Origin: Amphiscolops sp. MND2022
Taxonomy: Eukaryota
Direction of reading: 5' to 3'
Length of the DNA: 64,000 nt
Assembly (NCBI GenBank): GCA_964187785.1
Contig: OZ076409.1
Coordinates: 7,690,001 to 7,754,000 of the forward strand
Positions 23,131-56,884 of this stretch are shown here, piece after piece. Made by a program: the position numbers and the translations under genes. Below the pieces are notes generated by a model, which was not told where the DNA came from, searched no databases, and saw nothing but the letters and a program-made list of their open reading frames with translations. Each line of letters starts with the position of its first letter. The first letter of the stretch is position 1.

Positions 23131-23373
23131 TCATTTTCTCAAAATTCCTGCTGAATGAAAGTTGAATGAAAAAGTAAGAAATAAGTAAAGGTAAATAGTA
23201 ACCCGAAGAAAGAACACTAAAAAGAAGATTGCATTAGTGAAGCTTATGATTAAAAAGGTGAACAATAATACTTCAAGATTGATAGCCATACAACTTCACC
23301 TTCTTCAACTAGAAACAATTCATCATCTAGTTCAACTCATTCATTCCAAACATTACCCGAATAAACAGCATAT

Positions 23374-24671: not shown

Positions 24672-24673
24672 AT

Positions 24674-33189: not shown

Positions 33190-33908
33190 TGTAACGTCCG
33201 CCTCTGGCATGACAAATTTCGATGAAAAATTCGAAATGTGCGACATCGCAATTCAGCAAAAAAGATGGCCGACCTAACAGGAGCGGAAATAAAGAAAAAC
33301 AAAAAAAGAAAAGAGAGAGCACGCTGAAGAGAGCAAAAAAGAAAGGAACCAGAAAGCAGAACGACTATTGACATGAAGATTCGCACAGTGCCGAATGTGA
33401 CGAGTGCATACCGGTGTTATGCCATCCCTCTGGGAGAGAATGCAAAACCGTTCCAGAATGGCATGACTGGATCCCCGAAAACCTACAAGCAGTAACTGTA
33501 CTCCCCTTTGGGGCTCATCCCCCTTAATTTGTTGATTTGTAATGTATTTTGCTGTTTCGCTTATGCCTGACCTTCTAGATCAGCATTTCATATCCTTAAC
33601 TGTCAAAATGGTACTTTTTGGATAAACACTTTTGGACCTCGGAAGTATGTAGGAAGTCGTAGGAAGGCTTGGGATTATGTAGGAACGTTTTTACAGGCTT
33701 GTGGGGCGTGTCCGGACTTTGAGAGTGCCGGCACGTCGCCTCGGAGCTCTAACTAGAGGAGCCTCCTTAGACGTTAGAAAAGTCCCCCATGGAGACCATT
33801 TTGGGAGAAAAGCCAGTGTCTAGGAGTGTAGTAAGACAACGGTCTCCTGTTTAAGCACCCTAGGCATTGTCCCACTTCCGGGATGTGCGCCGCTAGCCGG
33901 ACGTTACA
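33190..33908 (+). repeat. 5' LTR of element C
   Basis: Matches 51753-52472 with only a handful of differences seen by eye. Confidence 0.96.
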
Positions 33909-33924
33909 TCTGGAATAGTTTTTA

Positions 33925-33942
33925 TGGCGACCACAGAGGGAT
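33925..33942 (+). promoter_or_regulatory. Putative primer-binding site (tRNA-Arg-like) of element C
   Basis: TGGCGACCACAGAGGGA resembles the complement of animal tRNA-Arg 3' ends (recalled as TGGCGACCACGAAGGGA). It lies 16 nt downstream of the LTR end. Confidence 0.5.
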
Positions 33943-36900
33943 ATTTTTCCCTACCGCGTCCTGCGAGGAGCAACTCCTGCTTTCCGGCCCTGTAAGGTCC
34001 GGATCTAGGAGAAGCTTTTGGGAGGGTCCTAGATTGTTTTTACTGCCTTTTTCTAGCCCTTTGGGCCTTGTATTAGAGTTTTTCCTGCGTTTCCTGCATG
34101 TTTCCGAGGTCTCCAGCCTGAAAAAGACAGTTTGAAACAGTGTACCCCCTTGCACCTTATCTGTACTTGTTAAAAGAGCTATTCCGGCCTATCCGGAACG
34201 TGTTTTAACGGGTTTTCCAGCTTCTTTTCAGCTAATCGGCAATGTACAGGGACTGCGAGGACGGTTCGTGAAGACCCGAGCTAGCTGAGTGCAGGACTAC
34301 AGGTGCTTCACGTCATAGCCTCTTCCTCCCCACCTGGTGCCGATTCACCAAAGACAGCTGGGTTATTTCGTTCCCTTTACGTTTTATAGCCCCAAATTAG
34401 TATTCCCAGCTCTGTTTTTGCATAAACTAACTGAGAAAAATACCCACAGGGTGTTTGCATCAGTTATTTTAAAGTTTGAGCTCGAAAACATCGAAAATAA
34501 TACTAATAATAGCTCAAATATCGAATTTTCCCGTTTTGGAAGCCAGAATTTTGTAGAATTGTATACGGCCTATGGGAATACCTGAAAAACGTTCTGTCAG
34601 ACCTACCAGGTCGAGAACAAAATTTTTTGTTGGGCTGTTTTTTTTTGAAAAACTTGAAAAATTCAGCAATTTTTGTTTAAAAATCGGCAAAATTGGCCAT
34701 TTTGACCGATTTTGGTAAGGGCAAAGCCTTGGGCGTTTGTTCCCAAGCCTCTTGAACGGCCCAAAAATTTTGGTGTTGAGCTTGGTAGTACGCAATACTA
34801 CTACCAAGACGGTTTTTGACTGCCCCTAATATAAATTGAAGTTTTAACATCACTTTTCTTTCATTAAAATAGACCTGAGTGAAGGACCCCCATAGACCTG
34901 AGTGTTATTGAAATCAAATTAATTATTGCAACTACCCCAGCCCCCTGAATAAAGTTATTACGTGTCCTAACTCTACTGATAAAACCAAACGGAACACCAG
35001 AGAACCGAAAAAACATCGGGTTATTGACGAAAACACGTATTTTCAGTACTGTTCCGAGGGTGTAAAAAGTGCAATCGGAAAATTTTGTGAGAGACCTTGT
35101 TTGAAACCTACCAGGTTTTGCTTGCCTATTTACAGTTAATAGAGAGCGTAACGTTGCAAACGCCGAAAACCGCAAGCATTTCTGAGCAGTGGTTGTTGAG
35201 AAATAGTCGAAAACGCACAATTTTTGCGTCAATTTCGGAATTCGGCAACCTCGTATTTTCAACAAGTCGAAATCTCTCCTAACAGGAAGAGCTAAAAACG
35301 GATTGCACCGTCGTGTAGAGCGCAAAAAGTTACGCTAGTAGCGTGATTTTGATAGCCCTACTGTGAATACCCGCAGAGATAACTTAGCCGCAGTTTTGTT
35401 CAGAAAGTGTACCAAATTGCCGAAAAATCGAAAATTTGATTGAGCCTGGTGTGATATCTCCGGGATATCCCGGCACCCTAATTTTCCTATTTTCGTCCTC
35501 GGGGTACCAAATCCCGACGATTTGTGCAATTTGAGCAGCCGACTACCAGCCGAAGCTGAGAAATTGACATTTTTGTGATTTTTGACCCGAAAAAGTGGTA
35601 CCTCTGGTACATCAAGGTTTTGTCACTTCGGATCGCCCGATATTAATCCAGGCACCTCGCCGCCAGACTTTTCTGTTGCGTGAGCATAAGTTACGCTCGC
35701 ATGCGAAATTTCGGGTAGCTGGGACGCCTAGGACGCGAGTTACACCACTTTTTGCGAATTTCACGACATAGTCAATTTTTCGGTAAACATTGTTAAGTGG
35801 CCGCAACACCCATTGGGTCACTTTTGGCGCAATCGGAGATTAATTCCCCACGATTTAGCCAGTATAATAGACGGTGTGAAATTTTCAGGTCGCTAGCAGC
35901 ACTAGAAGTGATTTTCACCTTCCCCGGAGGTGCTACTTGACGAGAAAAACAGCGTTTCGGATGAATTTTGACTGAAAACCCGCGCACTTCTAGTCCTGAC
36001 GTGCCTCACTCAGGGCTGAAACGACCTGTTTAGCGCATCAAGCAAATCCCACACGGCTCACTGAACTTACAAAATCCGCGTAGGGTTGGCCCCAAGACCA
36101 GCGACCTCCCACTAAACACTCTACGAGACTAAGAGACGGTAACCCTAAAAACCGAAATTCGTTTCTTGCCCGCCACCAAAGTCGCCTAGGTGCAATTTGC
36201 TCGCTATAACCACATGTACTCTGCGCCTCGTGTACCCTGAGGATGCGAGAGTGTGCCCGGGAGCACCAAAGCAGTCACAGACCAGGTTTGCGGGACGCGT
36301 AGAGAAAGTAGAACAAGTACGGAAGAGACCACCCATATCGTTGTAAACTCTTTTACCCACGAGCCGTGAGGCCATAGACCAGGGTACCACTCAATACTCA
36401 ACCCCCACGTTCCCAATCAATCCCCAGATCATTCCCCGTCCATCGCCCATCCATTGTTCCCGAATCAACCTCGTCGTACAAGCGTATAAAACAACCTAAA
36501 GTGACCCCCACTGCGCTCTGCGCGGGGGATACAAAAAGAAATCTCCGCCGACGAGTTTGAAGCTAACCCAATAGTTTTCAGTTAACGGTAACAGCAAGGC
36601 CTGCGGTCACCTAAAAGTAGAAGTCAATTTGGCGTGTAGTAATCTGTAGTTGTGATCGCCAAAAAAAAACTGAAAAATTTTTGCTAAGAAAGCCAAACCT
36701 TCTCTTAAGTGAGGGAAAAGCAAACGAAATTTTAGTTAAACCAACCAGCGATAGTGTGCCTAGTGCACTCCGAGAGTGCAGGAAGGAGTTCAAGCCCACA
36801 TAGTAGGTCTCAACCTCAATACACAAGAGACCGGCCACTCCGAGCGGCTAGGCACGCCGAATAGCTTAGTAGGTTAGTTAGTTAGTGCAGTTTAGATAGT

Positions 36901-37066
36901 ACCCCTTGAGTCATTCAGCCAAAGCAAACCCTTCTCACTCCATCATTTACCACTTGTTTTGCGGGGGAAGGGAGTAGAGAGAAATCAAAAAAAAAATTTT
37001 TTGCTTGTTGCGTGCCGCGTGGAAACTTCGTACGCAGCGCGAGCTACAATATCTCATCCCGTGGCC

Positions 37067-39601
37067 ATGGAACGACGCGAAGCTAACGCTACCATAAGCG
37101 ACCTCCACGCCACCAATCCTTTCAGAAGGGGAACGGAAGCCACGACCGAACAAAACGAATGTAGACTAGATTCCGCCATAGCAGCCATGTTTTCAGAAGT
37201 CATGTCTGACTACGTACCGAGCCAGGAGCAAAACGCGGAGATAGCCGTTGCCACCAGCCAGCCTAACTCCTCGCGAGCCTCCCCCGACAGCACCAATCCA
37301 CAGGATGGTGCTGAAACCACCATGCAAAGAAACACATGGCCTCCGCTGGAAGTCACTGACTACAGCTTGGAAAATTGGCCAAACTACAACCAAGGGCCCA
37401 CACGTGAGCCCAGCACTGCTGACAACCCCATTGAACAAAATGACACTCTAACGACTCCACAGGCGGACCCACGGACGGCGGTTGTCGAGAGGGACCCCTC
37501 GGGTTCCCAGGAGATGACCAATAGCATAGGCGGGAATCCCTTTCGGAGCGGATATGCGCTACCGGGAGCACCGGCGAAAGCGTCGAGTAGGCCGGCGGAG
37601 AATTTGAAAACAACCGTGACAGAGAATCCGTTAAGATACGTTTTTCGAACGCCACCCTCGGCGGGTCCAAAGGTTAACTACGCGAATGCGAGCCGAGCAT
37701 CCCACACGCCAAGCTCTCAAGCCAGCGCCGACACCAATAGTGACTCAACGATAACCAAAGCAAGAAAGGAAGCGCAAGCAATTCGAGAAGACTTTCAGAG
37801 TAGCCTAGCTCAGCTAGCCCAAGTCCAGACGAAGCTGGCGCGGGAAAACAACGAACATGAAATGCGCGCCGACATGATAATGAGGGACATGGACGAGCTG
37901 CGAAGAGGTCTTCTGGAAATTCAAGCGGAAGGACGACAGAATCAGGGCCGACTGGAGGCGTCTATGGCGTCTCTCAACAATCTGATTAAACAGAGAGAGA
38001 CCACGGCGGATGCCCGCATGGCTGAGATGTCTGCAGTAATGAGAGAAAGAGACCGCCAGGCCGACGAACGCATGAAGGCAATGACGAACACAATGCAGCG
38101 CCGCAACATGGACTCCAATGTCCGCATGGCGGACTTGATGATGGCAATGCAAGATTTGACGCTAGGCGTGAAAGCAATTGTGTCGCAGACCCCAGCACCG
38201 CAGGCACAGACAGCGCCACGGGCGCCCCAAAAATACCAGCAAGCCGATATGCCCTCTACATGTGCAGCTCCCCAACCTCCCTACCGGAGGGTAGCACAGC
38301 ACACAGTGGAGCCTGCTAGGCCCCCAAAACTAGTGCCACCCGCGACGTACAGGCGTGACCCGTCGAAAGCTAGTAAAATGGCTAAGGTAGCCCACGCAGA
38401 GTCACGAGACGCCGGCACAGACCCCATGACTGACCCGCCGTCGTTCGACCAGTACGCCCGCGGGGCATCGACCTCGGGCGATTTCCACTCCGTTGCCGAC
38501 GAAATGAACACCCACAGGACCAGCTATTATACGGCCGATTCCAGCGCGGCATTCCGCCTACCTGCGCGAACGCAGACGTTCAGGGACTTTGTTCCGCGGC
38601 CAGTGGCCACCAGCACGCAGCGCAAGGTGACAACCAAGCGGAACATAGAACAAAGCAAAGGCGAACATGCCGACCTGGAAGAGATGCCCTCGGTGGCAGA
38701 AGAGGCCCCGGACACGCCGAGGACTACCCAACGACAGGCACTAGCAGAAGCAATATCCACAGCCATGTCTAAAGGCTTGGAGCCGTTGCTCGCCGTCAAA
38801 GAGTCTAAAAACAAACCCACGAAGTACAGAGGAACCCGAGACGGAAATGCAGATGGGTGGATGATGCTGATGAAACGCCACTTGGAAAAAGCACACCCGA
38901 AGGCGACCCCCCTTGACAAAGCATGGACGATAATTGAGTATCTGGAGCATGAAGCCAGAGACTACATCACGAACAAGTCCAAGGCCGAGAGGGACACGGA
39001 TGAGAAAGTGTTCGCGCTGTTGGCGCGTCGCTTTGGGACCGCCTCCAGCAAAATCCACATCCAGCAGCAATTCAGAACCCGCAATCAGAATAGCGAAGAG
39101 GACTACATGCAATACCTTGATGCCCTCGAGGGCTTGCGTAGCCAGGGTTACCCTAATGAGGAGGTAACGATTCGTCGATACGAAATCATGCAAAGATTCA
39201 TCGAGGGAGTACGCAACTTTGAATTGAAAAGAAACCTCGCGCTGATGTACGCACCGGAGCAATACGTGGAGGCTCCGCCGACAGTGGAAGCCCTTCGCTT
39301 CACGGTACAACAATATTTACGCATGCGCGGCTCCGCTCGCTCGGACAACTACCCAATGATACCCCCTCCACAACAACAGGCCAACCTCCCACAACCTAAT
39401 CAGTCTCCGGCAGCACCCCTGCCGGCCCAAAAAATGCAGCAGCAGCAGCCCCCCCAACCAGCGGCATACCAACAACAACCTGCGCCACCGGCAGCCTACC
39501 GACAGCAACCCCAACGGGCGTGCTTCAATTGCGGAGATCCGTCGCACTTCGTGGTGGACTGCCCACGGACCGCGCACGGAAGCCGGTGCAACAGCAAGTG
39601 A
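37067..39601 (+). CDS. gag: Element C Gag (capsid-like domain, coiled coil, CCHC zinc knuckle)
   Basis: ATG in strong Kozak context GCCATGG at 37067. KPTKYRG...ADGWM...LEHEARDY...RRFG capsid-type motif. CFNCGDPSHFVVDC knuckle. Confidence 0.88.
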   Translation: MERREANATISDLHATNPFRRGTEATTEQNECRLDSAIAAMFSEVMSDYVPSQEQNAEIAVATSQPNSSRASPDSTNPQDGAETTMQRNTWPPLEVTDYSLENWPNYNQGPTREPSTADNPIEQNDTLTTPQADPRTAVVERDPSGSQEMTNSIGGNPFRSGYALPGAPAKASSRPAENLKTTVTENPLRYVFRTPPSAGPKVNYANASRASHTPSSQASADTNSDSTITKARKEAQAIREDFQSSLAQLAQVQTKLARENNEHEMRADMIMRDMDELRRGLLEIQAEGRQNQGRLEASMASLNNLIKQRETTADARMAEMSAVMRERDRQADERMKAMTNTMQRRNMDSNVRMADLMMAMQDLTLGVKAIVSQTPAPQAQTAPRAPQKYQQADMPSTCAAPQPPYRRVAQHTVEPARPPKLVPPATYRRDPSKASKMAKVAHAESRDAGTDPMTDPPSFDQYARGASTSGDFHSVADEMNTHRTSYYTADSSAAFRLPARTQTFRDFVPRPVATSTQRKVTTKRNIEQSKGEHADLEEMPSVAEEAPDTPRTTQRQALAEAISTAMSKGLEPLLAVKESKNKPTKYRGTRDGNADGWMMLMKRHLEKAHPKATPLDKAWTIIEYLEHEARDYITNKSKAERDTDEKVFALLARRFGTASSKIHIQQQFRTRNQNSEEDYMQYLDALEGLRSQGYPNEEVTIRRYEIMQRFIEGVRNFELKRNLALMYAPEQYVEAPPTVEALRFTVQQYLRMRGSARSDNYPMIPPPQQQANLPQPNQSPAAPLPAQKMQQQQPPQPAAYQQQPAPPAAYRQQPQRACFNCGDPSHFVVDCPRTAHGSRCNSK

Positions 39602-42032
39602 ACTCCTGTCACACGAACCCGTCCGGCAGTTGGATGTGCCCCTCTCAGCCACATGGCTTGAACTATGATGTTTTCCCAGCATCCCTACCAACCCAAGGCA
39701 CAGTTGCCTTCTGCATCAATTGCGGCCGTACCGAGCACTCGGCGTCGGAATGCATGGCCCCGGAGCACATGAGCCACGAAGAGCAAATCCGTGCAGCGTG
39801 GTATGCTCCTTCGCCAAGTCAGTTCGACGGCCTGGGCCAAGACGACCAGGTCCGGGTAATATCGATAGCGGAAGATGGAGGCCCCTCCCGACCGGTGGTA
39901 GTCACCTGTGGCGAGAAGCAGGTACTCACCACGCTGGAGGCACCCACCCCAGATTGCACAGAAACACTTATCTCGATACACCTACTTCTCTCGGCCGAGC
40001 AGAAGTCGCGGCCCACACTGACCTTTACGAAGCTGAAAGAGGAGTTATGCAGAAACGTGAAATATACGATCGCCGCGCGACAGCTTCCGCATTTTGCAAG
40101 GGAAGACGAAACGAAACTGGCCCCAATACAGAAAGTCAAAACTATCTCTCCGGTGCCGGTAGTCATCAACGTCGACGGTGTAGACATGAAGTTCGACGCT
40201 ATCGTAGTCCTAGAAGGTCACTTCCCTCAGGGATTGTACTTGGGCCCCCAGGAGTTGCGGTGTTACAACATCGGGGTGCAAGATGCCCAGGGGGAGGCTC
40301 GCATAGATGAACGGGCATCCTTGGTGGTTGCCTTTGGCAACACGATCCAGGAGCCAATACCCTTGTACGGGATGGTTGACACCGGCTCGGGTGTTTCCAT
40401 CCTCTCCCTCAAGGCCTATCAAAAGATTGCAGCAGCCCACACCTTGAGCCTCCTGCCTTATGACATCCAGCTGTATGCTGCCAATGGCAAAACGATCAAC
40501 ACCATCGGCATTGCCGAAGATGTCAGCTTCCAGTTGGGCGGACATACCCTTCGAACCAACTTTATAGTCATTTCCGATCACCTAGGTGCGGAGGACTTTT
40601 TGCTCGGCAGAAACTTCTTGCGCACTTACAACGTCCTCGTGGACTTGACGGCCATGAGGGTCACCATACGAGACCCCAAAGCGCCACGCCACTTCAAACC
40701 CGTCCATGAGGTAAGTGACCACGAGCCATCCTTAGTGATATCCACCGAAAAGGTAGTCCTAGGCCCCTATGAGCGTAAGCTGGTGCGAGCCCATATTATT
40801 TCTCAAAAGCACAATGAGTACCACTTCCGGAACGTAATGATTCGCCCCCTGGGGGTGCATAAACGGTGCCCCTTTGTTTCAGAAGATACATTGACGTCTG
40901 TTGGAGACGAGGGCATTGTTTTCATAGCCGTACGAAACACTGCCGCCTTCGAAAACGTAACTATTCGAACCAAAACTGTCCTTGGTAAGGCAGAACCTAC
41001 AAACTTTGTGTTGCAACCTGTGGCTGCCGATACGGCAACCGAAATTGATAAATCTTTGTTTGAACAAGTTAATAGAGTTTATACAGATGAGTGGTTGAGC
41101 GAAACGAGTTCGGAATTCAGTTCTTTTGCTCAAAACTTTTTGTCCTCTACTGAGATGTCCGAGGAAGGGTTGTCGGAAAGTGAGAAGCATGCTAGGACAG
41201 ACCCACAGTTACTAAAACCTATACCAGGTCCAGACCTCTCTTCCGTCCTTTCTTCATGGGGGGAGGGGCGAGAGATCAACTAGCAAGCGTCTTGAGTGAG
41301 TACGATGATCTTTTCATGAAGCACAAGGCTGACATAGGGAGATGCAAAATAGCGAAACATCGCATAGAACTAGAGCCAGAGGCTATCTCGCACAGAGAAG
41401 GCGCTCGGCGCATGTCCCCTGATAAGGCGGCGAAGGCCAACCAAGAGGTGCAGAACTTGTTGGCCCTTGTCCTAATTCAACCCTCCTACTCGCCGTGGGC
41501 AAGCGGGATATTCATGGTCAAGAAGAAAACAGGCGAACTTCGCTTCTGCTGTGACTTCCGGCCGCTCAACGACGTGACGGTCAAGGACGCGTTCCCATTG
41601 CCCAGGATCGATGAAAGTCTATCCCGGATTGGCAATGCGAAGATCTTTACAAGTATCGACCTAGCGTGGGCCTTCTGGCAGATACCGCTAAAGAAACGCG
41701 ATAGGAGGAAAACGGCGTTTGCCTGCGAACTGGGCTTATTCGAATGGCAGCGCATGCCCTTTGGGATGTGCAACGCTTCAGCCACATTCCAGCGCTCCAT
41801 TACGCGAGCCCTGCAACGGATCCAGCAGCGACACGGGAGTGTCGTCATGGCTTACATTGACGACATCGTCATCGCCACGGAAACCATAGAAGAACATATC
41901 GCACGAATCACTCCGAGAGGCTGGATTCAAGATGCGTGCCGAGAAATGCGACTTCATGCGCACGGAGACAAAGTACCTGGGACGGGTGGTATCCTCAGAA
42001 GGCATCAAGCCAGACCCCGAGGCAGTGATTAA
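39520..42032 (+). pseudogene. pol: Element C pol 5' part (second knuckle, protease, dUTPase-like insert, RT), with frameshifts near 39570, 41265 and 41910
   Basis: CINCGRTEHSASEC; MVDTGSG...LLGRNFL protease; RT motifs FCCDFRPLN, FPLPRID, IDLAWAFWQI, MPFG and YIDD. Confidence 0.93.
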
Positions 42033-45000
42033 AATCCAGGAATGGATGCCCTCGAGAAGCAGAGAGGAGCTTCAGAGCTTCCTGGGGTTCGCGAACTACT
42101 ACCGGGACTTTGTGCCGTTTCATGCAGCCAAGGTGCAACCCCTGCAGGAGTTGCTCAAGAAGAATCAGCATTTTCACTGGGAAGTGAAACACCAAGAGGC
42201 CTTCGATGCCGCGAAAGAGGCCCTAGCAAACGCGCCCGCTTTGGCAGCCCCAAACGAAGACGGACGGTTCGTGCTCGATACCGATGCTAGCGCGGTAGCA
42301 ATAGCTGGAATCCTGCACCAGGAACAAGAACACAATGGGAAAACCGTCCTACGGCCAATAGTCTTCGGAAGCAAGTCCCTGACCAAGACGCAACTGAATT
42401 ATGGAGCGCCCAAGTTGGAAATGTATGCAGTGTTTTACTTCATCGAGAAGTTCCATTCGTACCTCGCAGGCCGAGAGTTCACGCTCCGCGTGGACAACCA
42501 GGCCCTATCATGGCTTAAAACATACTCCATGGACCAAGCCATGATAGGCCGCTGGATAGCGCGTCTGGATCAGTACAACTTCAAGACGATCCACCGACCT
42601 CGCGCGCAGCACCGGAATGTGGACGGCCTCAGCAAACGGACTAACGACTATGTGCACCGAGAGAAAATCCTTGAGAAGTTGCCGGAAGTGAGCGAGGGGT
42701 TCAACTTCATGACCCAGAAGGACTATGAAGCGCTCCCCGCCGTGCCATACTTCGATAAACACGGACGCCTGATACCAGACCACCCCGAGCTTCCACCGGA
42801 AGCTCGAGCCCAACTCCCACTACTGTATATCTTGGGGAAGGGGCCCAAAAGGAGCTTGCAAGAGCCCTCGGCGAGTGATGCCCCGTGGTACCCTCAAGTA
42901 CAGTGGGAAACGACGCCCACCATCGATGAGGATCACCGACCAAATCACATCCTCAGCATCGCAACCGGAGTGCCACCGGCACGCCTAGACACTGGAGAAC
43001 CTGACCCTGCGCTTGAAGGGATGCCACCCGAGTGCCAAAGACAAGCCCATGCCCTCAGGACTGTCGGGACAGAGCTGCAAGAACACTTTCTAACTAGGCG
43101 CGGCCTCAAAGATCTGCACTTAGCGCAGAGTAGGGACGTGCACCTCTTGGCGCTGAGGAAACTCATGAAAGGCGAACCATTGGAGGACGCCATGTTCCCC
43201 GAAGACGTGCAGGACTTCGCTCGGCGCTACTTCCACCAAAAGAAAGACCTGCTCTTCCTGAATCCGGACGACAACCTCTGCGTCAACTACGTTCCGCAAA
43301 AGCGTGCGCTGCACGTGCGACCGTGCATGATAGTCATGCCCCAACTATACCAACACGAGATCTTGTATAGGGCGCACGACGAATCGGGACATCAGGGCGT
43401 AGGGAAGGTGCTAGCAAGAGTACAAGAGCGGCACACTTGGCCGGGCATCAAGCGTGACATAGTCAATCACATTAAGCACTGCCTAACCTGCCAGCAAACC
43501 AAACACCCTGCCGGAAACCCCTGCTACCCCCTGCAGAACATCAACAGCAGCAACTTCAACGACCTGGTGCAATTTGACCATCTGAAACTGTGCAAAACCG
43601 AGTCGGGTAACACCGGTCTCTTGGTCATAATAGACCACTTCACGAAATTCGCCGAGGCTATCCCGTGTGCCCACGACGAATATGATGCCCAAACCACTGC
43701 CAAGATTATCCTCAATAAATGGTTTGCTAGGCACGGCACTCCAGCCCGTATGCAGTCGGACAATGCCACGAATTTCACAGCTGAAATCGCGCAGGAGTTA
43801 ATGAAGGCATCACAGGTGACAAAGGTGACATCCACACCGGCGCATCCCCGAGGAAATGGACTTGTGGAGAGACAGAACCGAACACTGCTTACGCTGCTCC
43901 GAGTCTACACGTCGCGGCGAATGCAGGATTGGGACGAGCACATCGATGGAATCCTTGGTGCCTACAACTCTACTAGGCATGCCACCACGGGTTTCTCTCC
44001 CTACATTCTCCAACATGGAGCCGAAAAGTCCATTCCCTTGTCATTCATCTACCCGGAGTTTGCTGCGCGAGGATTCAACTCCAAGGAAGAATTCGTAGAA
44101 CACCTTCTAGCCAGGCAACAAGAAATCCATGAACTAGTTAGAAGAAACACGCACCAAGCACAGCTAAGGCAAAAGCTAAAGTTTGACCGCCACCTCAAGG
44201 CCAAAGCGCACGCCGTAGGCGATGCGGTGTGGGTGTTCTGCCATATCATACCCAAGGGTGGCACCCGCAAGCTGATCCGCGCATGGCGTGGACCCCACAA
44301 GGTGACTGATGTGTTGCAGGACGGACGACTATATGTGCTGGACACCGGTCAAAAGGTCCATTACGAAAGATTGAAAAGACACGTGCCCGCCCCCTGGGAC
44401 TGGGCTGCACACCAGCCCTTTGGGCTGGACCAGAATGTAGCCATTATTGCCGATCCGTACGTAGAGGAAAGCAACGAGGAGATAACATCGGACATCTCTC
44501 GAGACTCTTTCCTACCAGAACAACTTCCGGAAGCGTCGTTCGAAATGGAGCCGACAGGATCGGTCCCACCCCGCACCATTCAGACTCGTACGCAAACGGC
44601 CCTCGAGCAAGGAATACCCCGAAGAAGATTCAGCCACTTCGGATATCCCTCCGACTCGGACTCAGAAAGGGAAGAGAATGAACCGACGGTCCAGAACCCA
44701 GCACCGCCAGCGGTGTTCCCCGACCTGGACGACCTAGAGCCACTGTACTCCGACCAGGAGGAAGTTCAGCCAGCCGCACCTCCAAGTCTGATACCATCTC
44801 CCTCAGGGACCTCGGCCCCGCTACTATCTAATCCGTCTCTGACGGATACCCTAAGCAACTTTCCCCTGTTTGGCCCCCGATCGGAGGACCCAATCAGTCC
44901 CGTGGAAATAAAACCACCGTCAGGAACCGAGGGCGAGGAGGAGATGGTCCATCGAAGTCCAGTCCAGTGCTCAACACAACCCGGTACCACCAACCGCAGA

Positions 45001-46713
45001 GGACGGCCTCGAGGCCGACCACCAGGTCGAGGACGACCCCGCGCCATACCATCCAGTAAGACCACAACATCTTCGCGAACACAAACCACGCGATCCAGAA
45101 GAGGCCCTAGGACAAGGGTAAGCACTCGTACACCCCCTCGAATACTGGACCGAGCCATGACTCTACCAGAGATACCCGAGACCCAATCACCACCGGAAAA
45201 CCAGAACTCTGAGCTGGGACCGTCATCGCAAACATTACGATATCAACTGCGAGCTAATAGAGCACCGCGGTACAAGTGTGGAACCTGTGGTTCCCGCAAC
45301 TGTAGTTGCGTCAAGCGACTGGCCTGCGACTCGCCGGACCACCGATTGGCCCGGGGAGCGGTCATCCCTGCAAGGGAACTGTCAATGGCCAGGGCACCAT
45401 ATCATCCACAACAGGAGATCCTGACCGTGCAAGCCCAGCGAGAAAAAGTTGAGACCCCTCCGCTGGTACACCACCTAGTCATCACGGTAGAGAAAACATT
45501 CACTAGTGTAGAGCGAGAAGTGATACCACCGCTGGAAGAAACGCTCAGAGCAATGCACGCGACATCTCCCTCCGACTGCCCCACTTACCGATTCAAGGAG
45601 TGGACACCACCTCACCGAGGCGGTCTGGAGTTCACTCTCCATGCCATCATACCGCCCTTGCCACCCTCAATAACGTTCGGCGAGCTAGCGGAAGAGGATA
45701 GCAGCCCGGAGATGGTTCGCTGTATCACCGCACACCAACTGTGGGAGAAATACCGCATTGCCTCCCCGCCGGGAGATATATACCAGCCCACCAAAGGATG
45801 GTGGCTACTCATCACCTCTCTCGACGCAACGACGTTGGTGTCTCACAAAACGCTGTTGATGTGCTTAGAGAGCTTGCGCACTGTAACGGAACCTGAGAGT
45901 ACACTCTGTTTCCACCTGGCCGACATCCATCGCGGCAAGTTCCTAAGCCAACATTGGCTACAATTGATTGCGGTCATCTTCTGCCGACAGGCGAAGATAT
46001 ACTTCTTGGATCGGCAATCTTATACGCCGGAAAAAACTGTCACGGTCAACGAAGCACTCTCCATAGCACACGATTGGTCATCCACCAACATGGGAGGTAG
46101 ACCGCTACGCCGCACCGTCTGGGAGGACCGCAAAGCGATCTTACAGCATCTAGCACCCCAACCTGATGGTGACCAGAGCAATACCACTGGTAAATGGCTC
46201 ATAACTCAGCCCAAGACCAGGCCGAACTACCTACCTTGGATAACTTATGCCAATACAGATATCCTGCAGGCCCCTGGCACTGTGATACTGTGTTGCCCTG
46301 CAGATTTGCTCTCCTACTCTGCCACCACCCGTTATGTTATTCGCGAATACGGTCAGGAAAACATATTTCGCCTAAGGCCGGCAGTTGGCACCGCAATTCG
46401 TTTAGTCCGCTCGCCAACTGCACCTTGGAATAACGAAATTTTCCTTCTATGTACCCGAGCATCGAATAAACACCCACTCTTACATGAAGTACTCCATGCG
46501 TGTTTGACGAATTTGATACTCCAGCTCCATCGAAACCGAATTACCAGAATCCACTTGCCCATGTATGATCCCGAGCGGTCGATGAACCTCCTACCAGCCT
46601 GGTACGCCACGCTACGCGATCACTTTGCAGACCAGAATATTGCGATAATCTTGCACGATCGCGTCTATGTCTCGATAGCATCGGTGACGTCAGTCGATTT
46701 TGGCAGTAGTTAG
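41932..46713 (+). CDS. pol: Element C pol 3' part: RT thumb, RNase H, integrase, disordered linker, Cys cluster, tandem macrodomain-like module
   Basis: 1593-aa open frame. LDTDAS RNase H; H-x4-H/CLTC zinc finger; DDE core (FDH, SDN, ERQNR); WRGPH; then ~780 further residues. Confidence 0.93.
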   Translation: MRAEKCDFMRTETKYLGRVVSSEGIKPDPEAVIKIQEWMPSRSREELQSFLGFANYYRDFVPFHAAKVQPLQELLKKNQHFHWEVKHQEAFDAAKEALANAPALAAPNEDGRFVLDTDASAVAIAGILHQEQEHNGKTVLRPIVFGSKSLTKTQLNYGAPKLEMYAVFYFIEKFHSYLAGREFTLRVDNQALSWLKTYSMDQAMIGRWIARLDQYNFKTIHRPRAQHRNVDGLSKRTNDYVHREKILEKLPEVSEGFNFMTQKDYEALPAVPYFDKHGRLIPDHPELPPEARAQLPLLYILGKGPKRSLQEPSASDAPWYPQVQWETTPTIDEDHRPNHILSIATGVPPARLDTGEPDPALEGMPPECQRQAHALRTVGTELQEHFLTRRGLKDLHLAQSRDVHLLALRKLMKGEPLEDAMFPEDVQDFARRYFHQKKDLLFLNPDDNLCVNYVPQKRALHVRPCMIVMPQLYQHEILYRAHDESGHQGVGKVLARVQERHTWPGIKRDIVNHIKHCLTCQQTKHPAGNPCYPLQNINSSNFNDLVQFDHLKLCKTESGNTGLLVIIDHFTKFAEAIPCAHDEYDAQTTAKIILNKWFARHGTPARMQSDNATNFTAEIAQELMKASQVTKVTSTPAHPRGNGLVERQNRTLLTLLRVYTSRRMQDWDEHIDGILGAYNSTRHATTGFSPYILQHGAEKSIPLSFIYPEFAARGFNSKEEFVEHLLARQQEIHELVRRNTHQAQLRQKLKFDRHLKAKAHAVGDAVWVFCHIIPKGGTRKLIRAWRGPHKVTDVLQDGRLYVLDTGQKVHYERLKRHVPAPWDWAAHQPFGLDQNVAIIADPYVEESNEEITSDISRDSFLPEQLPEASFEMEPTGSVPPRTIQTRTQTALEQGIPRRRFSHFGYPSDSDSEREENEPTVQNPAPPAVFPDLDDLEPLYSDQEEVQPAAPPSLIPSPSGTSAPLLSNPSLTDTLSNFPLFGPRSEDPISPVEIKPPSGTEGEEEMVHRSPVQCSTQPGTTNRRGRPRGRPPGRGRPRAIPSSKTTTSSRTQTTRSRRGPRTRVSTRTPPRILDRAMTLPEIPETQSPPENQNSELGPSSQTLRYQLRANRAPRYKCGTCGSRNCSCVKRLACDSPDHRLARGAVIPARELSMARAPYHPQQEILTVQAQREKVETPPLVHHLVITVEKTFTSVEREVIPPLEETLRAMHATSPSDCPTYRFKEWTPPHRGGLEFTLHAIIPPLPPSITFGELAEEDSSPEMVRCITAHQLWEKYRIASPPGDIYQPTKGWWLLITSLDATTLVSHKTLLMCLESLRTVTEPESTLCFHLADIHRGKFLSQHWLQLIAVIFCRQAKIYFLDRQSYTPEKTVTVNEALSIAHDWSSTNMGGRPLRRTVWEDRKAILQHLAPQPDGDQSNTTGKWLITQPKTRPNYLPWITYANTDILQAPGTVILCCPADLLSYSATTRYVIREYGQENIFRLRPAVGTAIRLVRSPTAPWNNEIFLLCTRASNKHPLLHEVLHACLTNLILQLHRNRITRIHLPMYDPERSMNLLPAWYATLRDHFADQNIAIILHDRVYVSIASVTSVDFGSS
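45667..46659 (+). other. Two tandem TARG1/OARD1 (Poa1p-like) macrodomains at the Pol C-terminus (~45667-46011 and ~46240-46659)
   Basis: ITYANTDIL / ILCCPADL / VIREYG / VGTAI / IFLLCTR / HEVLHACLTNL / RITRIHLP / LRDHFADQNIAIILH follow, in order, the recalled TARG1 motifs ITYVKGDLF / AHCISED / FKKKFG / SGEVA / IYYLITK / YENLQKSLEAM / GVTDLSMP / IEEVFEATDIKITV. The first copy is more degenerate. Confidence 0.72.
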
Positions 46714-47044
46714 GAACACGTTTCGCTCTTTTCTTGGCAAATCAGGCCACTGGCCTTTTGTATTGCCTTTTGTAACTTGGAAAGCACTTTAGGTTTTAAC
46801 AAAAATGCACCGGTGAGTGCAAGTTTTAGTAATAACCACATGAACTTTTTAGCCTAATGTTTTGTGTGTTCGTCCTAAAAAGTTTGAGTGACCATCCGTT
46901 TGCGTGACGTTTTAACCCCAACTGTGACCTGTTTTTCAGTTTTGTCCTGTTGCTTCGCCTCTGCGCGGCTTCCCCAGTTATCACACCAAATCAGTCTTGC
47001 CATCACAATCTTCGGTGCTAAACACTCCTTTATCATCATTTCCA

Positions 47045-50000
47045 ATGGACGCATCTGCGCGAAACCGCCTGCCTGCACCCCAAAACGCTGCGCGTGCCCA
47101 ACAAACCACAAGGAGCGATGCACCTCCAATGATGAGCGAAATAGATGGTCGAGTCGACCAGCTAGCTCTCGTTCAAGACACTCTACTAAACGGAGCGACA
47201 CCCACAATGATCGCTGGCTTTGCCATGATCATCGCCCAAATCCAAGCCCAGGCGGCGTACCCTGATGTCAGTCTCACCATCACCAGCCGGGTCGGCCCGA
47301 TAGAGCGCCCTGCCATCTTTCGCGATGGTGCCTGGCACGGGTACGACTTGACCCACAGCCTGATTGATCCCCGCTCCCACTTAGTCTTTGGAGAGCCTAC
47401 TAGGCCTCCCATGGACCAGGAGCGATCACTGCGCATTTCGCAATCGGCAGTGCAGACACCAACTACAACCCCGTTGCCCTCACCACACCCTGTACGATTC
47501 AGCTGCACACTGCCAATGGTGCCACCCCCAGTGCTAACACCGCCCATGCCTCTGGCATCGGACGGCATCCGACTACTGACAACCCAGACATCCAACTTCA
47601 TGCTTCCATCTGCCTTTCAGGGGGAAGGGGTGCAAGTAGGCAACACAACAAGCACCACCCTGAGCGAGGAACAGCCCAGAGAGAGCCGCCCCGCGAGAAC
47701 AGTGACGTTTAAGGACTCGTATGAAGAATTGATCCAGTCGTCCTCCAGAACCGAACCACAAGTCTCGGAACCAGCCAGCCTAGTAGGCTTCCAGATGGAC
47801 CCACAATTGCGAGAACGCCAACGAGATCAGCAGAAAGCTGAGAGCAAGGCGGCCAGCACCGTGGTAGACCTCCGGGAGAAGATTAACGCTGGAAAGCGAG
47901 CTAGAGAGGCGGCCGAACAGGCTGGGCAATCGAGCTCGACCACTACCCCGCAACCCCCCGCTGCATCGCCCACACAACCAGAGGCCAGGAGACCGAGAGT
48001 AACGCGCGAGCTCCTCACACATGCAGAAAAACGGCAGCTGGACATCACTGCACGCGACGCACTGCGTCTCCAGCGGGAAGTGCCAACCACAACGTCAGCA
48101 GAAGACCCACTACGACAGAAGTTCGAGGTCGCTACTGGAACAGGGGACCTCGCCACTAGGCAGAAAATAGAGAAAGCCACAGTGGGAGTACTCTACAATC
48201 GCCCCGTCAAGAAACCCGTGTTCACTCGGGACGGATGCCCCCCATGGTTCAACCGCATGCGGGCAGAACTGGAGAGAAAGAACTCAACGTACATGCGTGT
48301 TCCCGACAGCTTCCTCCGACAGCGCCCTGGCCGCTTTGACGAAGACCGCCTGCGAACCAAGAACTATGCGCGGAACCCTGTTACAATCTTGCCCATGGAA
48401 AAGGACCTCCTACAGAAAACTAGGATAGCCTTCTTCGTCGACTCGACGATGAAGTCTTCCTTCAATTCCCACAACACCCTCATGGATGTCAGAATACTGA
48501 ATATGCCTTGTACCACACTGAATGAGATGGCAGAGGTGACTGACAAAATGTTCACCCAAGCGGGAGCAGAGACCATCCCACTTCCTCCGTTGTTGGTGTA
48601 TTCGAACGTGATAGACCACCTCGCTGTGCGGGGCACCCTGGAATTCTTCCGGCCGGACCATGAGAGGTTCACCGAGGGGTTCGTCACTGACGAGGTAACT
48701 AACTATGTGGAGACCATGGCCAACATTGTCCAAGCCATGCGCAGAAAGAAAGCCACAACTGGGACGGTGTTTATGTCACCTCCAGGCTACGTATACCTTC
48801 CCCGGACCCTTCAACAATTCTTGTACTTAGTGACGGAGGCCGCATATGCAAGAGATCTGCCTTTCTACATTGTGGCGCCCAACCTACGCATCAATAACAA
48901 TAGTTGGCGTCCCTGCGAAGCCTCATACCCGGCCTTCATCGCCGAAGTCCCCAAGGCCCTCCAGTCATACGTTGGTTACCGCGGCAATTCCCAAATGATA
49001 ATATATGAGGCCACAGCGTTCGACTATGGCATGGAAAGGCCCGTCGATCAATGAACGAGCGCGGAGACCGGGTAGTAAATGACCCAAACGAGAACGAGCG
49101 TGATAACCTGGTGGATAACCTCTGGTTTGAACGCCGGGATGAATCCACCCTGGATGAAAAGACGCACGAACCCAAATTCCACAAAGAACTCACGAGCCTG
49201 ATGAAGAAAACTGAAACGATTCAAGGCGATTGGAAGAACTCGTCCATCTTCCCTATAGCGCAAGTGTCGTTGGACGCTGAACCTGGGCTAAGATCACCCG
49301 CCTTAGCCATGCTGTCAATACTGGCCCAAGATATCGTACGAAGGAATACTCGAGAGCCAACACACACGTACCAAACATGGCACGACCAACTGCGGGAACC
49401 TCTAAGCCAAGTCGCGGAGCGGCTAGGCATACCATTTCCTGTGTTCCTTCATAACATCTCTCCCTTCTGGCTTCCCTCCTAGTACAGGCCGAGTAAGGCC
49501 TAGATGAGCAGCGGATGCGCTTGTACATGGACGCCATGGAAAGAGCCACCATCAGCGAAATGCTAGCATATTTGATGGCCGTGGGGTTGACTATGATGTA
49601 CCGAGGACCGTCATCCCTCATACAGAAACTCGTGCTTAACAAAGGAGGCTCAGCCCTGTTCAGCTTCTTGGTCTTTTCGCAATATTAAAGGAGCTGGATA
49701 TATGCGCTCATTGAAACTCTGGACCCGGTGGGTTCCTTGAAGTTGAAAGCGCAACTAGATTTGAACATTCAAGCTCTCCTGGTGTGGATTTATTCCACCT
49801 GGGTCAATGTTGCTGGCATCATGCATCCTCTGGATGAGTGCCCGGCTATCAACCGAGACCCCAGTCAGCTTCCAGGGTTCCTGTTCCCGACACAAATGGC
49901 AACATTGATGCTCGTGGAAACAGAGGACCTGATCCCACTCATCGCTCCTGTAATCTGGCCCATCTTCGTCGCAGTTATGGCCTTGCGGTATCCCACGCAG

Positions 50001-51158
50001 GGCTTGCGAGTGGCTGCAGTAGCCCCATCGCTCTCAATTCTGCACTTCGTGACCTCCAATGGGCCCCTTCAGGGTCCCACCTATCAATCAATAATTCGCA
50101 GCTTCGCCAACTTGCGACCTCCCATGGCATACACCATAATCAAAGACCGCCAGCAGGTGGAGCACAACTACCTAATGATGATCAAAGCGCGAGCACGCAG
50201 CTCGCTCCCACTGCCAATGGAAATCCACCCGGTCGCTTGGCTACATGCCCCCCTTAACCCAAACAATGGAACAGTGGCAACTTTTGATGGGTGGGACGTG
50301 CCAGTTGTCTTGCGCATCTTGAGCACGATTATCCAAAGATTGGGTGGTCGCCGGAAAGGAGAGGAGCCCACTGGGTTGTTATATCCCTATGCATGCGACA
50401 TTTCCAGGGTATACTGTGCGAGAGCGGAGCCCCGTGATCATACCGCCAGAATTCTAAATACCATCACGTGCTGGGCCCAGCCGGAGCTCGTAGACCTCGC
50501 CATCCACCAGACTTTTCAACAGCTGCTAACGACTGTTCCAACTGTAGCGAGAGAACCCAACAGGAAGGACCTGCCCGTGAGCACAGACGTTCCCAGTAAC
50601 CCGCGCATTGCGCTAGAGATATTCATGCGCCTGCATGGTCTCCAGCGAGAACAGACTCGAGCTGTAGGAGAAGAGTACGCTAGGGGAATACAAACATTCA
50701 AGCAGCTATTCACCCAGCATGGTCATCAAGAACTGGCGGACGGACTGCCAAACCTGGAGCCAACCGAAGCTATCCCGGGAATTAGCGGGTTGGGCGAAGC
50801 TGCCTCTGACAGCCCCCAGACCGTCCCTCCCACATCCCACCTCACTCAAGACACCGATGAGTCATTGATGGAAGGGGTACAAGACGATATCTCAAACGTC
50901 ATGCCACCATCAGAGGAGCCCATGACCGACAATAATTTCACACTCTCTGATGCCGCTACCCCTGTAAGAGACGAAGCGGAGACTGGTATCTCAAACATGG
51001 AGGCGGCGGATATAGAGTCGGAACTTAACAACCTACTGACTATGGATGAGGAATCATCGCCCCCCTCCGAGGCGCCCGATTCGGCCGTCCAAAATACAGT
51101 GAACACCATGGCCAGCACTTCCACGCAGGAAGCCCCACAAGATCAGCTGTTGGAGTAA
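47045..51158 (+). pseudogene. Element C ORF3 (~1370 aa when repaired) with a central degenerate SGNH/GDSL-hydrolase-like domain
   Basis: ORFs 46997-49054, 49051-49482 and 49728-51158 join across two frameshifts and two stops. SGNH-like blocks IAFFVDS, ILNMPCTT, PLLVYSNVIDHL, VFMSPP and RPCEASY at ~48420-48960. Acidic disordered tail. Confidence 0.7.
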
Positions 51159-51752
51159 AGGAGTCCTCTGGACCCTCCAAGACCACTGGAATACTGTAAA
51201 GCACAGAAGACCTTATCGTCAAAACATTGGTGCAAACTTTTGGTTTTAGTTATGCTACGCTATCTCACTGGTGCTGAAAACTTTCGGTGCAATAAAGTTT
51301 GATTTCGAATTTTTTTTTGTTTGATATTTATTTTACTATGCTACCAATGCAACAATACGATATAGCTACGTCCTCTGGGCGGGTCCCGGTTCGGTGCCCT
51401 CCCGTTTTGATTTGAATTTAAAACTTCTACTAAGCCCAAAAGCTGTTGTTACTCACCTGGCCGCGCAGGGGCCCAATTTTAGAAAAAGAAATTTTAACTT
51501 GGACTGAGTGATTAGTGAAAAAGTTTCTTTTTTTAAAGAGCCGACTGTAGAGTTTTTAACCTCGAAACTAGTGCTTTTTGAATTTGATGGCTTTGGAGTG
51601 CTAAACATGCAGTAACGAAACGAAAAGAATAGTAATGTGAGATCAATTTAGTTCAGCTCTGATGTAAGATTTTTTGTGTAAATCTCAGAGTACCCTTTGG
51701 GTGCGAGCATCCTCTCGTTTGCCGAGGACGACAAACTATGGCCCGGGGAGGA

Positions 51753-52472
51753 TGTAACGTCCGCCTCTGGCATGACAAAATTTCGATGAAAAAATCGAAA
51801 TGTGCGACATCGCAATTCAGCAAAAAAGATGGCCGACCTAACAGGAGCGGAAATAAAGAAAAACAAAAAAAGAAAAGAGAGAGCACGCTGAAGAGAGCAA
51901 AAAAGAAAGGAACCAGAAAGCAGAACGACTATTGACATGAAGATTCGCACAGTGCCGAATGTGACGAGTGCTACCCGGTGTTATGCCATCCCTCTGGGAG
52001 AGAATGCAAAACCGTTCCAGAATGGCATGACTGGATCTCCGAAAACCTACAAGCAGTAACTGTACTCCCCTTTGGGGCTCATCCCCCTTAATTTGTTGAT
52101 TTGTAATGTATTTTGCTGTTTCGCTTATGCCTGACCTTCTAGATCAGCATTTCATATCCTTAACTGTCAAAATGGTACTTTTTGGATAAACACTTTTGGA
52201 CCTCGGAAGTATGTAGGAAGTCGTAGGAAGGCTTGGGATTATGTAGGAACGTTTTTACAGGCTTGTGGGGCGTGTCCGGACTTTGAGAGTGCCGGCACGT
52301 CGCCTCGGAGCTCTAACTAGAGGAGCCTCCTTAGACGTTAGAAAAGTCCCCCATGGAGACCATTTTGGGAGAAAAGCCAGTGTCTAGGAGTGTAGTAAGA
52401 CAACGGTCTCCTGTTTAAGCACCCTAGGCATTGTCCCACTTCCGGGATGTGCGCCGCTAGCCGGACGTTACA
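51753..52472 (+). repeat. 3' LTR of element C
   Basis: Direct repeat of 33190-33908, preceded by PPT GGGGAGGA. Confidence 0.96.
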
Positions 52473-56023: not shown

Positions 56024-56786
56024 TGTAGTTTGTTTGTTTTGTAAATATTTGTTGTAATCAGGGTCATTTAGTTGATTTATTTTGTAAAACTGATGTCTTA
56101 AAATGATTTGCCAAACCTTAAGAGGATTTAATGATGTTTTTAGTTACTCCTGATGATCTTAATGCAGTGCTAGTAGTTCATTTTAATCAAGCAGTACCAA
56201 TTGTATACGACATTGTGCGTTTTGAGTGCTAATGAGTATGCGGTACTATGCGCATATGCATCTTTCTGACTTTCACTATACGTCACTATGCGGTTTGAGC
56301 AGTGACATTTACTCGACACTATGCATCTTTCTAACTTTCATTATACGTCACCATGCGGTTTGAGCGGTGACATTTACTCAACACTATGCATTTTTCATTA
56401 TACGTCATCCTGCGGTTTGAGGAACAATGAGTACTCGGTACAATACGTTTTTCGCTATGCTTGCTTTAATATGAAGAATTAACTTTGCTTTTCCATATAC
56501 AGTAGTATAAGTCCATGATATATCGTTGTTTAACACCTTTCTAGGGTCTTATAAGCCTCGTTATCATTTCTGAATGTCATGGAAAATGACTCATGAGATA
56601 TAAATAGGATGACGGTATTCTGACGAAGTGCTATTATTAGTTTTCCTAGGAATGATGCTTGTAAAATTGCGTGTCATCTTTTTGTGATTTTGTACTTTCT
56701 AGAGGAATAAAGGAGCGAACACAACTGATATAACTTTCTTCAGAACCAGTTTGTTCTCTGATAACTATTGCAACCTTTGTTCTACA
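56024..56786 (+). repeat. Probable 5' LTR of element D (763 bp) with internal ~63-bp tandem repeats
   Basis: TGTAG...CTACA inverted termini. TATAAA at ~56599, AATAAA at ~56706, TGG 3 nt downstream. Repeats of CACTATGCGGTTTGAG...ACACTATGCAT at 56245-56420. Partner LTR not in window. Confidence 0.65.
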
Positions 56787-56884
56787 TTTTGGGATCTTTG
56801 AACATTTCAAATTGATTTCCTTTGACTATTTGTCTTCAATTCAAATTCTTGACCCTGCAAATCGATCGTTTTCACTTGAGAAAG

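Follow-up and report, generated by a model that had tools for sequence, protein, structure and literature searches.

Introduction

In macrodomains, the diphosphate and the distal ribose are usually held between the two glycine-containing loops, and human TARG1 has the catalytic dyad Lys84/Asp125. The TARG1/ALC1-like class, to which TARG1 belongs, reverses the ADP-ribosylation of proteins as well as the thymidine-linked ADP-ribosylation of DNA, the latter being described as its unifying function. DarG, Poa1p, and SCO6735 (ALC1-like) act on ADP-ribosylated DNA or protein, and SCO6735 is active without both TARG1 catalytic residues, having Gln85 at the Lys position (all in the available portion of PMC9411070). 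Here, we analyzed a stretch of 64,000 nucleotides from Amphiscolops sp. MND2022 (GCA_964187785.1, contig OZ076409.1, positions 7,690,001 to 7,754,000; the whole stretch is hereafter the window), in which the Pol protein of a Ty3/Gypsy retrotransposon bearing long terminal repeats (LTRs) ends in a module predicted to comprise two tandem TARG1-like macrodomains with replaced catalytic residues.

Human TARG1/OARD1 (C6orf130; 4J5R, 4J5S, and 2LGR) is the best structural match of both domains, with which it has in common the order of loop 1, a T-[K/R] strand, and loop 2. The differences are that identity amounts to 14-18%, that the module lacks a sequence-level match, and that its dyad and glycine loops are replaced; moreover, TARG1 is a free enzyme of 152 residues, whereas the module is a tandem fused to a retroelement integrase. 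DarG, Poa1p, and SCO6735 are enzymes with intact phosphate-binding loops, whereas those of the module have been rewritten. RNA-virus macrodomains (alphavirus nsP3, coronavirus Mac1, and virga-like) likewise present a macro fold within a viral polyprotein, but they are of the MacroD type, are mostly active hydrolases, and match domain 2 at Z about 11-12 and domain 1 at Z about 7, which is below TARG1.

A preliminary description of the window, made from its letters, had stated that macrodomains occur in some retroelements. This is borne out by fish epsilon-like endogenous retroviruses, in which open reading frames (ORFs) with a macro domain are described (Basta et al. 2009, cited in the accessible part of PMC4977317), and by two further Gypsy families found in this genome, which are described below. 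The fish domains are additional ORFs rather than a Pfam-invisible tandem fused to a Gypsy integrase, as far as that part of the source goes. Transposable elements are also described as capturing chromatin readers, namely Chromo and PHD domains (available excerpt of bioRxiv 10.1101/2021.11.30.470311). The chromodomain of chromoviruses is a functional analogy only, as a captured reader on the integrase tail that tethers integration; its fold is different. A literature search that left most subscription journals outside its coverage turned up no description of a Gypsy Pol with a TARG1-type macrodomain or of a degenerate pair in tandem, so that absence is not established.

Results

Two tandem macro folds are predicted at the end of Pol

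The element occupies window positions 33190-52472 (19,283 bp). As the preliminary description had it, the Pol frame (P0002) runs open past the integrase, a linker, and a CGTCGSRNCSC cluster; it spans 1607 codons and reaches position 46713. Along the tail, the order is integrase core, SH3-like stretch, linker, Cys cluster, beta-rich extension, domain 1, helical spacer, and domain 2; the part analyzed as P0001 has 491 residues (window 45238-46713), of which about 420 form the terminal module.

41890..46713, plus strand: last Pol frame, open for 1607 codons, with a TAG stop at 46711-46713
45658..46023, plus strand: macro-like domain 1, predicted as a diverged TARG1-like fold (P0001 141-259)
46234..46662, plus strand: macrodomain 2, predicted as a TARG1-like fold, with the catalytic dyad replaced (P0001 333-475)

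An AlphaFold2 model of the whole tail, built on a 22-sequence alignment, had a mean predicted local distance difference test score (pLDDT) of 64.4 and contained two confident blocks; the block means along domain 2 were 67-95. When this model was compared with the PDB by Foldseek, eight TARG1 (C6orf130) entries came first (E 3.9e-9 to 1.8e-7), with TM-scores to the target of 0.76-0.85 (0.83 for the entry with the best E), followed by a PARP14 tandem-macro entry and DarG. In VIA-align, for which the stated background is Z = 7-8, domain 2 superposed on TARG1 (4j5r_A) with Z 18.2 and a root-mean-square deviation (rmsd) of 2.1 Å over 137 of 141 residues at 18% identity, and its next matches were DarG (Z 15.2) and Poa1p (Z 13.1). 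A viral structure library returned RNA-virus macrodomains and an entomopoxvirus protein.

Domain 1 was modelled alone (P0001 residues 70-310, 60-sequence alignment), which gave a pLDDT of 88.3 and a predicted template modelling score of 0.84, and TARG1 again ranked first in Foldseek (E 7.3e-5). The tandem of TARG1-like folds proposed in the preliminary description was thus recovered by AlphaFold and Foldseek for both domains. Domain 1 was also searched without Foldseek against 48,161 representative chains, only five of which reached Z ≥ 8. At the top stood TARG1 (2lgr; Z 11.4, rmsd 3.3 Å, 118 residues aligned, model residues 72-190), followed by the Bacteroides protein 2afc (10.6), DarG (10.3), Poa1p (9.4), and DarTG (9.1). 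All five cover model residues 71-191, that is P0001 140-260, and the structural matches leave uncovered the first 70 residues of the model and its two C-terminal helices.

Both predicted models superpose on the three-layer alpha/beta/alpha macrodomain fold, whose central sheet is mixed, and TARG1, DarG, and Poa1p outrank the MacroD and PARG types, as expected of the TARG1/ALC1-like class, profile support for domain 1 being weak (41%). By these models, the tail carries two tandem macro folds, both nearest to the TARG1/DarG/Poa1p group, with domain 2 far better preserved than domain 1.

Domain 1 also matched macro folds that serve other purposes: leucine aminopeptidases, through their N-terminal domains, at Z about 6-7.5, the SARS-unique domain (8ufm) at Z 7.1, and SARS-CoV macrodomain II bound to human Paip1 (6yxj) at Z 6.7. 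Such matches, together with the loss of the classical phosphate loops, would suit macro folds that are pure scaffolds for integrase multimerisation, particle assembly, or the binding of a host protein, and that have no link to ADP-ribose. Set against this is the near-invariance of three tabulated motif stretches of domain 2, which correspond by alignment to the canonical ligand loops and the Lys site. Because these stretches are so constant, a retained pocket fits better than a generic surface, and we consider the scaffold explanation rather unlikely.

Domain 2 resembles canonical macrodomains of other Gypsy families in the same genome

When the 1.07-Gb genome was searched with Pfam Macro, three host-like macro genes came up along with many matches within long retroelement frames, the latter from two other Gypsy families, which we call L035 and L036. 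Over the aligned parts, their Pol proteins share no more than 23% and 35% identity with the Pol of the element studied here.

The L035 family (L035:2438-8212 on contig C12, and loci L014-L016 and L018) encodes a Pol of 1925 residues with protease, reverse transcriptase, RNase H, and integrase, followed by a single C-terminal Macro domain (residues 1744-1847, 23.3 bits). This domain matches human TARG1 in phmmer at E 1.4e-27, and in the alignment the Lys of T-K-K and the Asp of G-C-G-L-D, which we counted as Lys84 and Asp125, are identical. A macrodomain on a Gypsy integrase tail is therefore not unique to the window's element in this genome, since the L035 family has a canonical one there. In the L036 family (L036:2199-5750 on contig C1, and loci L019-L022), a TARG1-like macrodomain follows RNase H and precedes integrase (Pfam Macro, 25.8 bits); its motifs are largely canonical, namely H-C-V-S-A-D, I-T-K, and G-C-G-V-D. 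Both macrodomains thus sit within a Gypsy Pol like the module, that of L035 also being C-terminal and past the integrase, but they are single and detected by Pfam Macro, whereas the module is a tandem that Pfam does not detect.

As separate observations on the L035 family, its Pol has a weak dUTPase match past the protease (E 0.0029, under the cut-off), and a search of long proteins with its macrodomain returned only three metagenome polyproteins (P0291-P0293, labelled 'jgi') at 35-40% identity. One of the three has the viral methyltransferase domain PF01660, a hint at a kinship with RNA-virus macrodomains.

A profile of domain 2 aligned with a profile of six canonical macrodomains from the two Gypsy families at an hhalign probability of 95.2% (E 2.6e-8, 127 columns), and BLASTP between domain 2 and a canonical macrodomain gave 34% identity over 44 residues (E 0.003). 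On this evidence, we take domain 2 to be homologous to the TARG1-like macrodomains of the other Gypsy families. For domain 1, hhalign gave 46% against the domain 2 profile (E 2.1e-4, 111 columns) and 41% against the canonical set (E 2.8e-4, 74 columns).

Curated sequence models were silent: Pfam returned zero families for P0001 at E up to 1, Pfam Macro (PF01661, cut-off 22 bits) matched none of the 22 family members at E up to 10, and a PDB sequence search with the single sequence and with the 22-sequence profile produced zero matches at E up to 10. In the ESM Atlas, the nearest clusters were phage proteins of about 150 residues, one of them with Macro on 14-15% of its members, at feature scores of 0.88-0.91, a chance-prone level that makes them a lead only. 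This silence and these scores are what one would expect if the macro resemblance were a modelling artefact or a chance similarity of alpha/beta sandwiches. Opposed to that explanation are (i) the Z of 18.2 for domain 2 over 137 of its 141 residues, compared with the background of 7-8, (ii) the independent chain search for domain 1, topped by TARG1, DarG, and Poa1p, and (iii) the 95% profile-profile homology to TARG1-like sequences, with which the motif order agrees. We regard an artefact as very improbable, and a macro fold of TARG1 ancestry as highly probable.

The catalytic residues and both glycine-containing loops are replaced

We mapped the active site transitively, from TARG1 to the L035 macrodomain and from there to domain 2, through two alignments, and counted residues in sequences thinned to below 90% identity (54 for domain 2 and 58 for domain 1). 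TARG1 Lys84 corresponds to Arg407 in domain 2, a position at which 51 of the 54 sequences have R and one has K; a relative from another genome has a Lys at this position. For TARG1 Asp125, the counterpart is position 448, with S in 28 of the 54 sequences and P in 18. In loop 1, the G-x-G position reads Y-S-A. The G-C-G of TARG1 falls on D444 (51/54), P445 (44/54), and E446 (49/54), and the following R447 is kept in 49 of 54, so that a family-specific D-P-E-R motif occupies the glycine-loop position. Together with D356, R407, and H439, the residues D444, E446, and R447 are each retained in 46-51 of the 54 sequences.

In domain 1, a conserved Thr precedes the Lys position, at which 53 of the 58 sequences have S or A; loop 2 reads D-x-Y-R-G-K, with D229 in 49, Y231 in 44, R232 in 51, G233 in 53, and K234 in 52 of the 58; and part of the helix-1 region is missing in the alignment to domain 2. 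Common to both domains at the TARG1 glycine-loop position is the motif H-L-(x)-x-D-x-x-R.

By sequence alignment, neither domain thus has the Lys84 and Asp125 of a TARG1-type hydrolase. The preliminary description had read TRA and TSL at the place of the catalytic Lys and had noted altered GCGLD loops; these stand at P0001 406-408 and 193-195, and at 443-448 and 228-234, respectively, and, according to the profile alignments and residue counts, neither domain keeps the Lys or the GCGLD loop.

One or both domains may nevertheless still be enzymes that work by a non-TARG1 mechanism, removing ADP-ribose from protein or DNA and so shielding the proteins or the cDNA of the element. Several observations speak for this: the class as a whole reverses thymidine-linked DNA ADP-ribosylation, and SCO6735 manages without the dyad, with Gln85 at the Lys site (PMC9411070, in the portion cited above); the polar cluster of D356, R407, H439, D444, E446, and R447 in the cleft loops of domain 2 is near-invariant; the canonical motifs of the two other Gypsy families suggest selection for such an activity in the retroelements of this host; and host mono-ADP-ribosylation is reported to silence L1 elements (accessible part of PMC4695847). 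However, both of the loops that would hold the diphosphate have been replaced, in domain 2 partly by acidic residues, and domain 1, with S or A in 53/58 at the Lys position, has neither a basic nor an amide side chain there and lacks part of the helix-1 region in the alignment to domain 2. Retained enzymatic activity is unlikely in our judgement.

The module is retained and constrained across diverged families

A first protein search with P0001 yielded 181 relatives, whose identities fall into tiers of about 98, 88, 65, and 38-40%; with a profile, 453 were obtained at E up to 0.001, most of them fragments. Among the long relatives, 19 of 22 had Pfam domains of reverse transcriptase or integrase. 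The database relatives listed with a source were unnamed 'ena' predictions, and zero of them had a precomputed Macro domain. Four relatives are encoded at 100% identity in the same genome, namely P0013 (65% identical to P0001), P0086 (40%), P0093 (38%), and P0155 (28%), and their families have many copies in open frames of 3100-3310 residues. In contrast, the best matches of P0165 and P0152 in this genome are only 33% and 35-36% identical, respectively, and these two therefore come from other genomes. The own-genome searches scored the best 80-137 of 3,445-5,428 first-look candidates each, so that the counts are lower bounds, and the candidate sets of the searches probably overlap. With thousands of first-look candidates, the superfamily appears to be very abundant in the 1.07-Gb genome.

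The module was found in every diverged sister family examined, where it is alignable down to 28-40% identity, and in the window's family it is stop-free in 73 of the 87 copies scored. We estimated the ratio of nonsynonymous to synonymous substitution rates (dN/dS) by the Nei-Gojobori method from codon alignments of fetched loci, with the module taken as P0001 76-475. The values are quoted within families only, as synonymous sites are saturated between the window's family and the 65% and 38% families:

Six loci of the 38% family, pooled pairs: module 0.08, domain 1 0.05, domain 2 0.08, upstream 500 codons 0.23
Pair L023/L026 (dS 0.81): module 0.08, domain 1 0.05, domain 2 0.06, upstream 500 codons 0.25
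Six loci of the 65% family: module 0.09, domain 1 0.05, domain 2 0.22, upstream 500 codons 0.37
Ten loci of the window's young family: module 0.27, domain 1 0.25, domain 2 0.25, upstream 500 codons 0.46

Neutral decay after insertion is expected to account for much of the divergence in the young family of the window's element. These ratios indicate that the module is under strong purifying selection. The preliminary description had allowed that it might be absent from sister copies or evolve neutrally in them; neither is the case, as it is retained with dN/dS of 0.05-0.08 in the diverged (38%) family. Alignability down to 28-40% identity at such ratios goes well past what chance would give.

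The integrase tail upstream of and between the macro folds

The remaining parts of the tail are as follows.

44392..45237, plus strand: linker rich in P, S, T, E, and R by composition (282 residues, P0002 835-1116)
44995..45042, plus strand: AT-hook-like GRP repeats within the linker
45277..45309, plus strand: four-Cys cluster CGTCGSRNCSC (C-x2-C-x4-C-x-C; P0001 14-24) in a basic segment
45463..45657, plus strand: beta-rich N-terminal extension of domain 1 (65 residues), with EKT, RFKEW, and GLEFTL invariant
46024..46233, plus strand: helical interdomain segment, with helices at residues 201-216 and 225-236 of the domain 1 model

The linker, which is probably disordered, aligns poorly between families, and the 500 codons upstream of the module have dN/dS of 0.23-0.46. 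The GRGRPP core of its AT-hook-like repeats is conserved in the 38%-identity tier, and Pfam AT_hook matched 8 of 22 family members, weakly (best E 0.2). The four-Cys cluster is conserved across the identity tiers (dN/dS 0.13-0.16) and has no Pfam match; we regard it as a putative zinc knuckle. Its segment carries a net charge of +5 to +8 per 30 residues in all four sequences that cover it (+8 in P0001 itself), unlike the macro domains, which are neutral to acidic. Because of this difference in charge, the AT-hook-like motif and the Cys knuckle are the likelier DNA contacts, and generic nucleic-acid binding by the macro domains is not favoured.

The beta-rich extension forms strands in the domain 1 model, shows dN/dS of 0.07-0.24, and lies outside every structural match. 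The interdomain segment has dN/dS of 0.12-0.39, and P0001 residues 304-327 within it are of low confidence in the whole-tail model.

The Ty3/Gypsy element as a whole

The element has a G+C content of 49-58%, compared with 31-43% in the flanking DNA, and is composed of the following features.

33190..33908, plus strand: 5' LTR with TG...CA ends, from blastn between the element ends
33925..33940, plus strand: TGG... stretch resembling a primer-binding site, 17 nucleotides past the 5' LTR; inferred, with no tRNA matched
36896..39601, plus strand: gag-like frame, with a zinc knuckle towards the end (below the Pfam cut-offs: zf-CCHC E 0.002, PNMA E 0.033)
39400..41283, plus strand: protease frame (gag-asp_proteas E 2.8e-6), with a frame break relative to gag in this copy
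41196..42032, plus strand: reverse transcriptase frame (RVT_1 E 3.5e-27), with frame breaks on either side in this copy
42178..42576, plus strand: RNase H (RT_RNaseH_2 E 9.3e-27, RT_RNaseH E 6.8e-25; residues 97-229 of P0002)
43339..43977, plus strand: integrase zinc-binding domain and catalytic core (Integrase_H2C2 E 1.2e-16, rve E 4.5e-8; P0002 484-696)
46928..49054, plus strand: ORF3, 708 codons, after pol; no Pfam match
49689..51158, plus strand: ORF4, 489 codons; no Pfam match; one hydrophobic, membrane-like segment
51753..52472, plus strand: 3' LTR with TG...CA ends and a purine-rich tract just before it

The two LTRs are 99.3% identical over 722 aligned columns (blastn 33189-33908 versus 51752-52472). 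The flanks adjoining their ends have only AAA in common, which leaves no clear target-site duplication. In P0002, the integrase zinc domain spans residues 484-539 and the core 557-696; rve_3 matches the core more weakly (E 2.3e-4, under its cut-off). The Pfam domain order of gag-like, protease, reverse transcriptase, RNase H, and integrase is that of Ty3/Gypsy, and with the LTRs it places the element in the Metaviridae. The Chromo family was not among the Pfam matches of the 1607-residue frame at E up to 1, and for lack of an integrase C-terminal chromodomain at this threshold the element is not assigned to the chromoviruses.

Despite the 99.3% LTR identity, the gag-pol of this copy (36896-42032 onward) is broken into four overlapping frames. 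Other genomic copies have single open frames of up to 3294 residues, and in many the frame is about 3100-3300 residues long. By tblastn, ORF3 follows pol in 10 of 10 loci of the window's family and is found in 11 loci of more distant sister families at 32-39% identity, and it is probably a real extra gene.

Other features of the window

Positions 56816-63036 hold another Gypsy element, with a gag frame containing a zinc knuckle and a Pol of 1440 residues. Over Pol residues 73-1456, its identity to the L035 family is about 35%; the window stops short of the part in which a macrodomain might appear. Just upstream of this element lies a tandem repeat (56255-56396, 65 bp, 2.2 copies). The AT-rich region 14000-31000 (31-34% G+C) has a strong strand asymmetry (GC skew about -0.3) and contains pieces of one more Gypsy element, with matches to gag, RT-like, and integrase C-terminal sequences, and a reverse transcriptase fragment is found at positions 44-1865 on the minus strand.

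Discussion

What is already familiar about the module is its fold, its ancestry, and the presence of a single canonical macrodomain at the same place in another Gypsy family of this genome. To account for the rest, we propose that a TARG1-type macrodomain was captured and then duplicated after its cleft had been remodelled, an order of events that is suggested by the H-L-(x)-x-D-x-x-R motif common to both domains. The resulting pair would no longer act as a TARG1-type hydrolase and would instead bind a ligand or a protein within the intasome, to which the AT-hook-like motif and the basic Cys knuckle would supply the DNA contact. At the positions of the cleft loops and of Lys84, the aligned residues are near-invariant, which points to a pocket that has been retained and re-specified, and the remodelled clefts may recognise an ADP-ribose-related or other host mark. 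Such recognition would either place integration or blunt a host control based on ADP-ribosylation; the preliminary description had put forward possible steering to PARylated chromatin or shielding of the integration complex. Taken whole, as a captured TARG1-type pair on the integrase that is constrained and has a non-hydrolytic binding role in the intasome, we consider this account fairly probable.

Several points weigh against it. Neither curated models nor solved chains match the module by sequence, and the macrodomain assignment comes from predicted structures and a small home-made profile; the whole-tail model reached only pLDDT 64.4 overall, and the profile evidence for domain 1 is weak. 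The duplication scenario has a single shared motif as its sole basis, which amounts to a hint. Loss of activity is inferred only, because SCO6735 is active without the dyad and one relative has Lys407. Further, the acidic residues at the glycine loop argue against classical diphosphate binding. Because both glycine-containing loops have been rewritten, the simple ADP-ribose reader put forward in the preliminary description is weakened as an idea, and binding of ADP-ribose cannot be assumed. Reading of ADP-ribose by the module is plausible, and the narrower proposal of a non-catalytic binder of an ADP-ribose-related mark has, in our estimate, somewhat less than an even chance.

A bolder proposal goes further. 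The pair might be a new targeting or counter-defence module that recognises an ADP-ribose-type mark, such as poly- or mono-ADP-ribose at chromatin or breaks, or ADP-ribosylated DNA, through an Arg/Asp/Glu/His cleft rather than glycine loops, possibly with the assistance of a metal. It would then belong to a conflict between host and retroelements in which at least three unrelated Gypsy lineages of this one genome have TARG1-type macrodomains at different places in Pol. A conflict over ADP-ribosylation is made plausible by the report that mono-ADP-ribosylation helps to silence L1 (accessible part of PMC4695847), which has no direct bearing on this element. We think this combined proposal improbable as it stands.

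Add-ons at the C terminus of integrase, for example chromodomains, decide where retroelements land. If our preferred account of a binding pair is true, two conserved pseudo-enzyme domains that descend from an ADP-ribose hydrolase would fill the same role in another way, and they point to a possible connection of host ADP-ribose signalling with the integration of retroelements. ADP-ribosylation as a battleground has so far been discussed mainly for RNA viruses. Together with the two Gypsy families that have canonical macrodomains, the module suggests that ADP-ribosylation may be a recurrent battleground or landmark for the retroelements of this host. As curated sequence models fail to pick up such domains at all, the number of macro-type modules carried by transposable elements may be underestimated.

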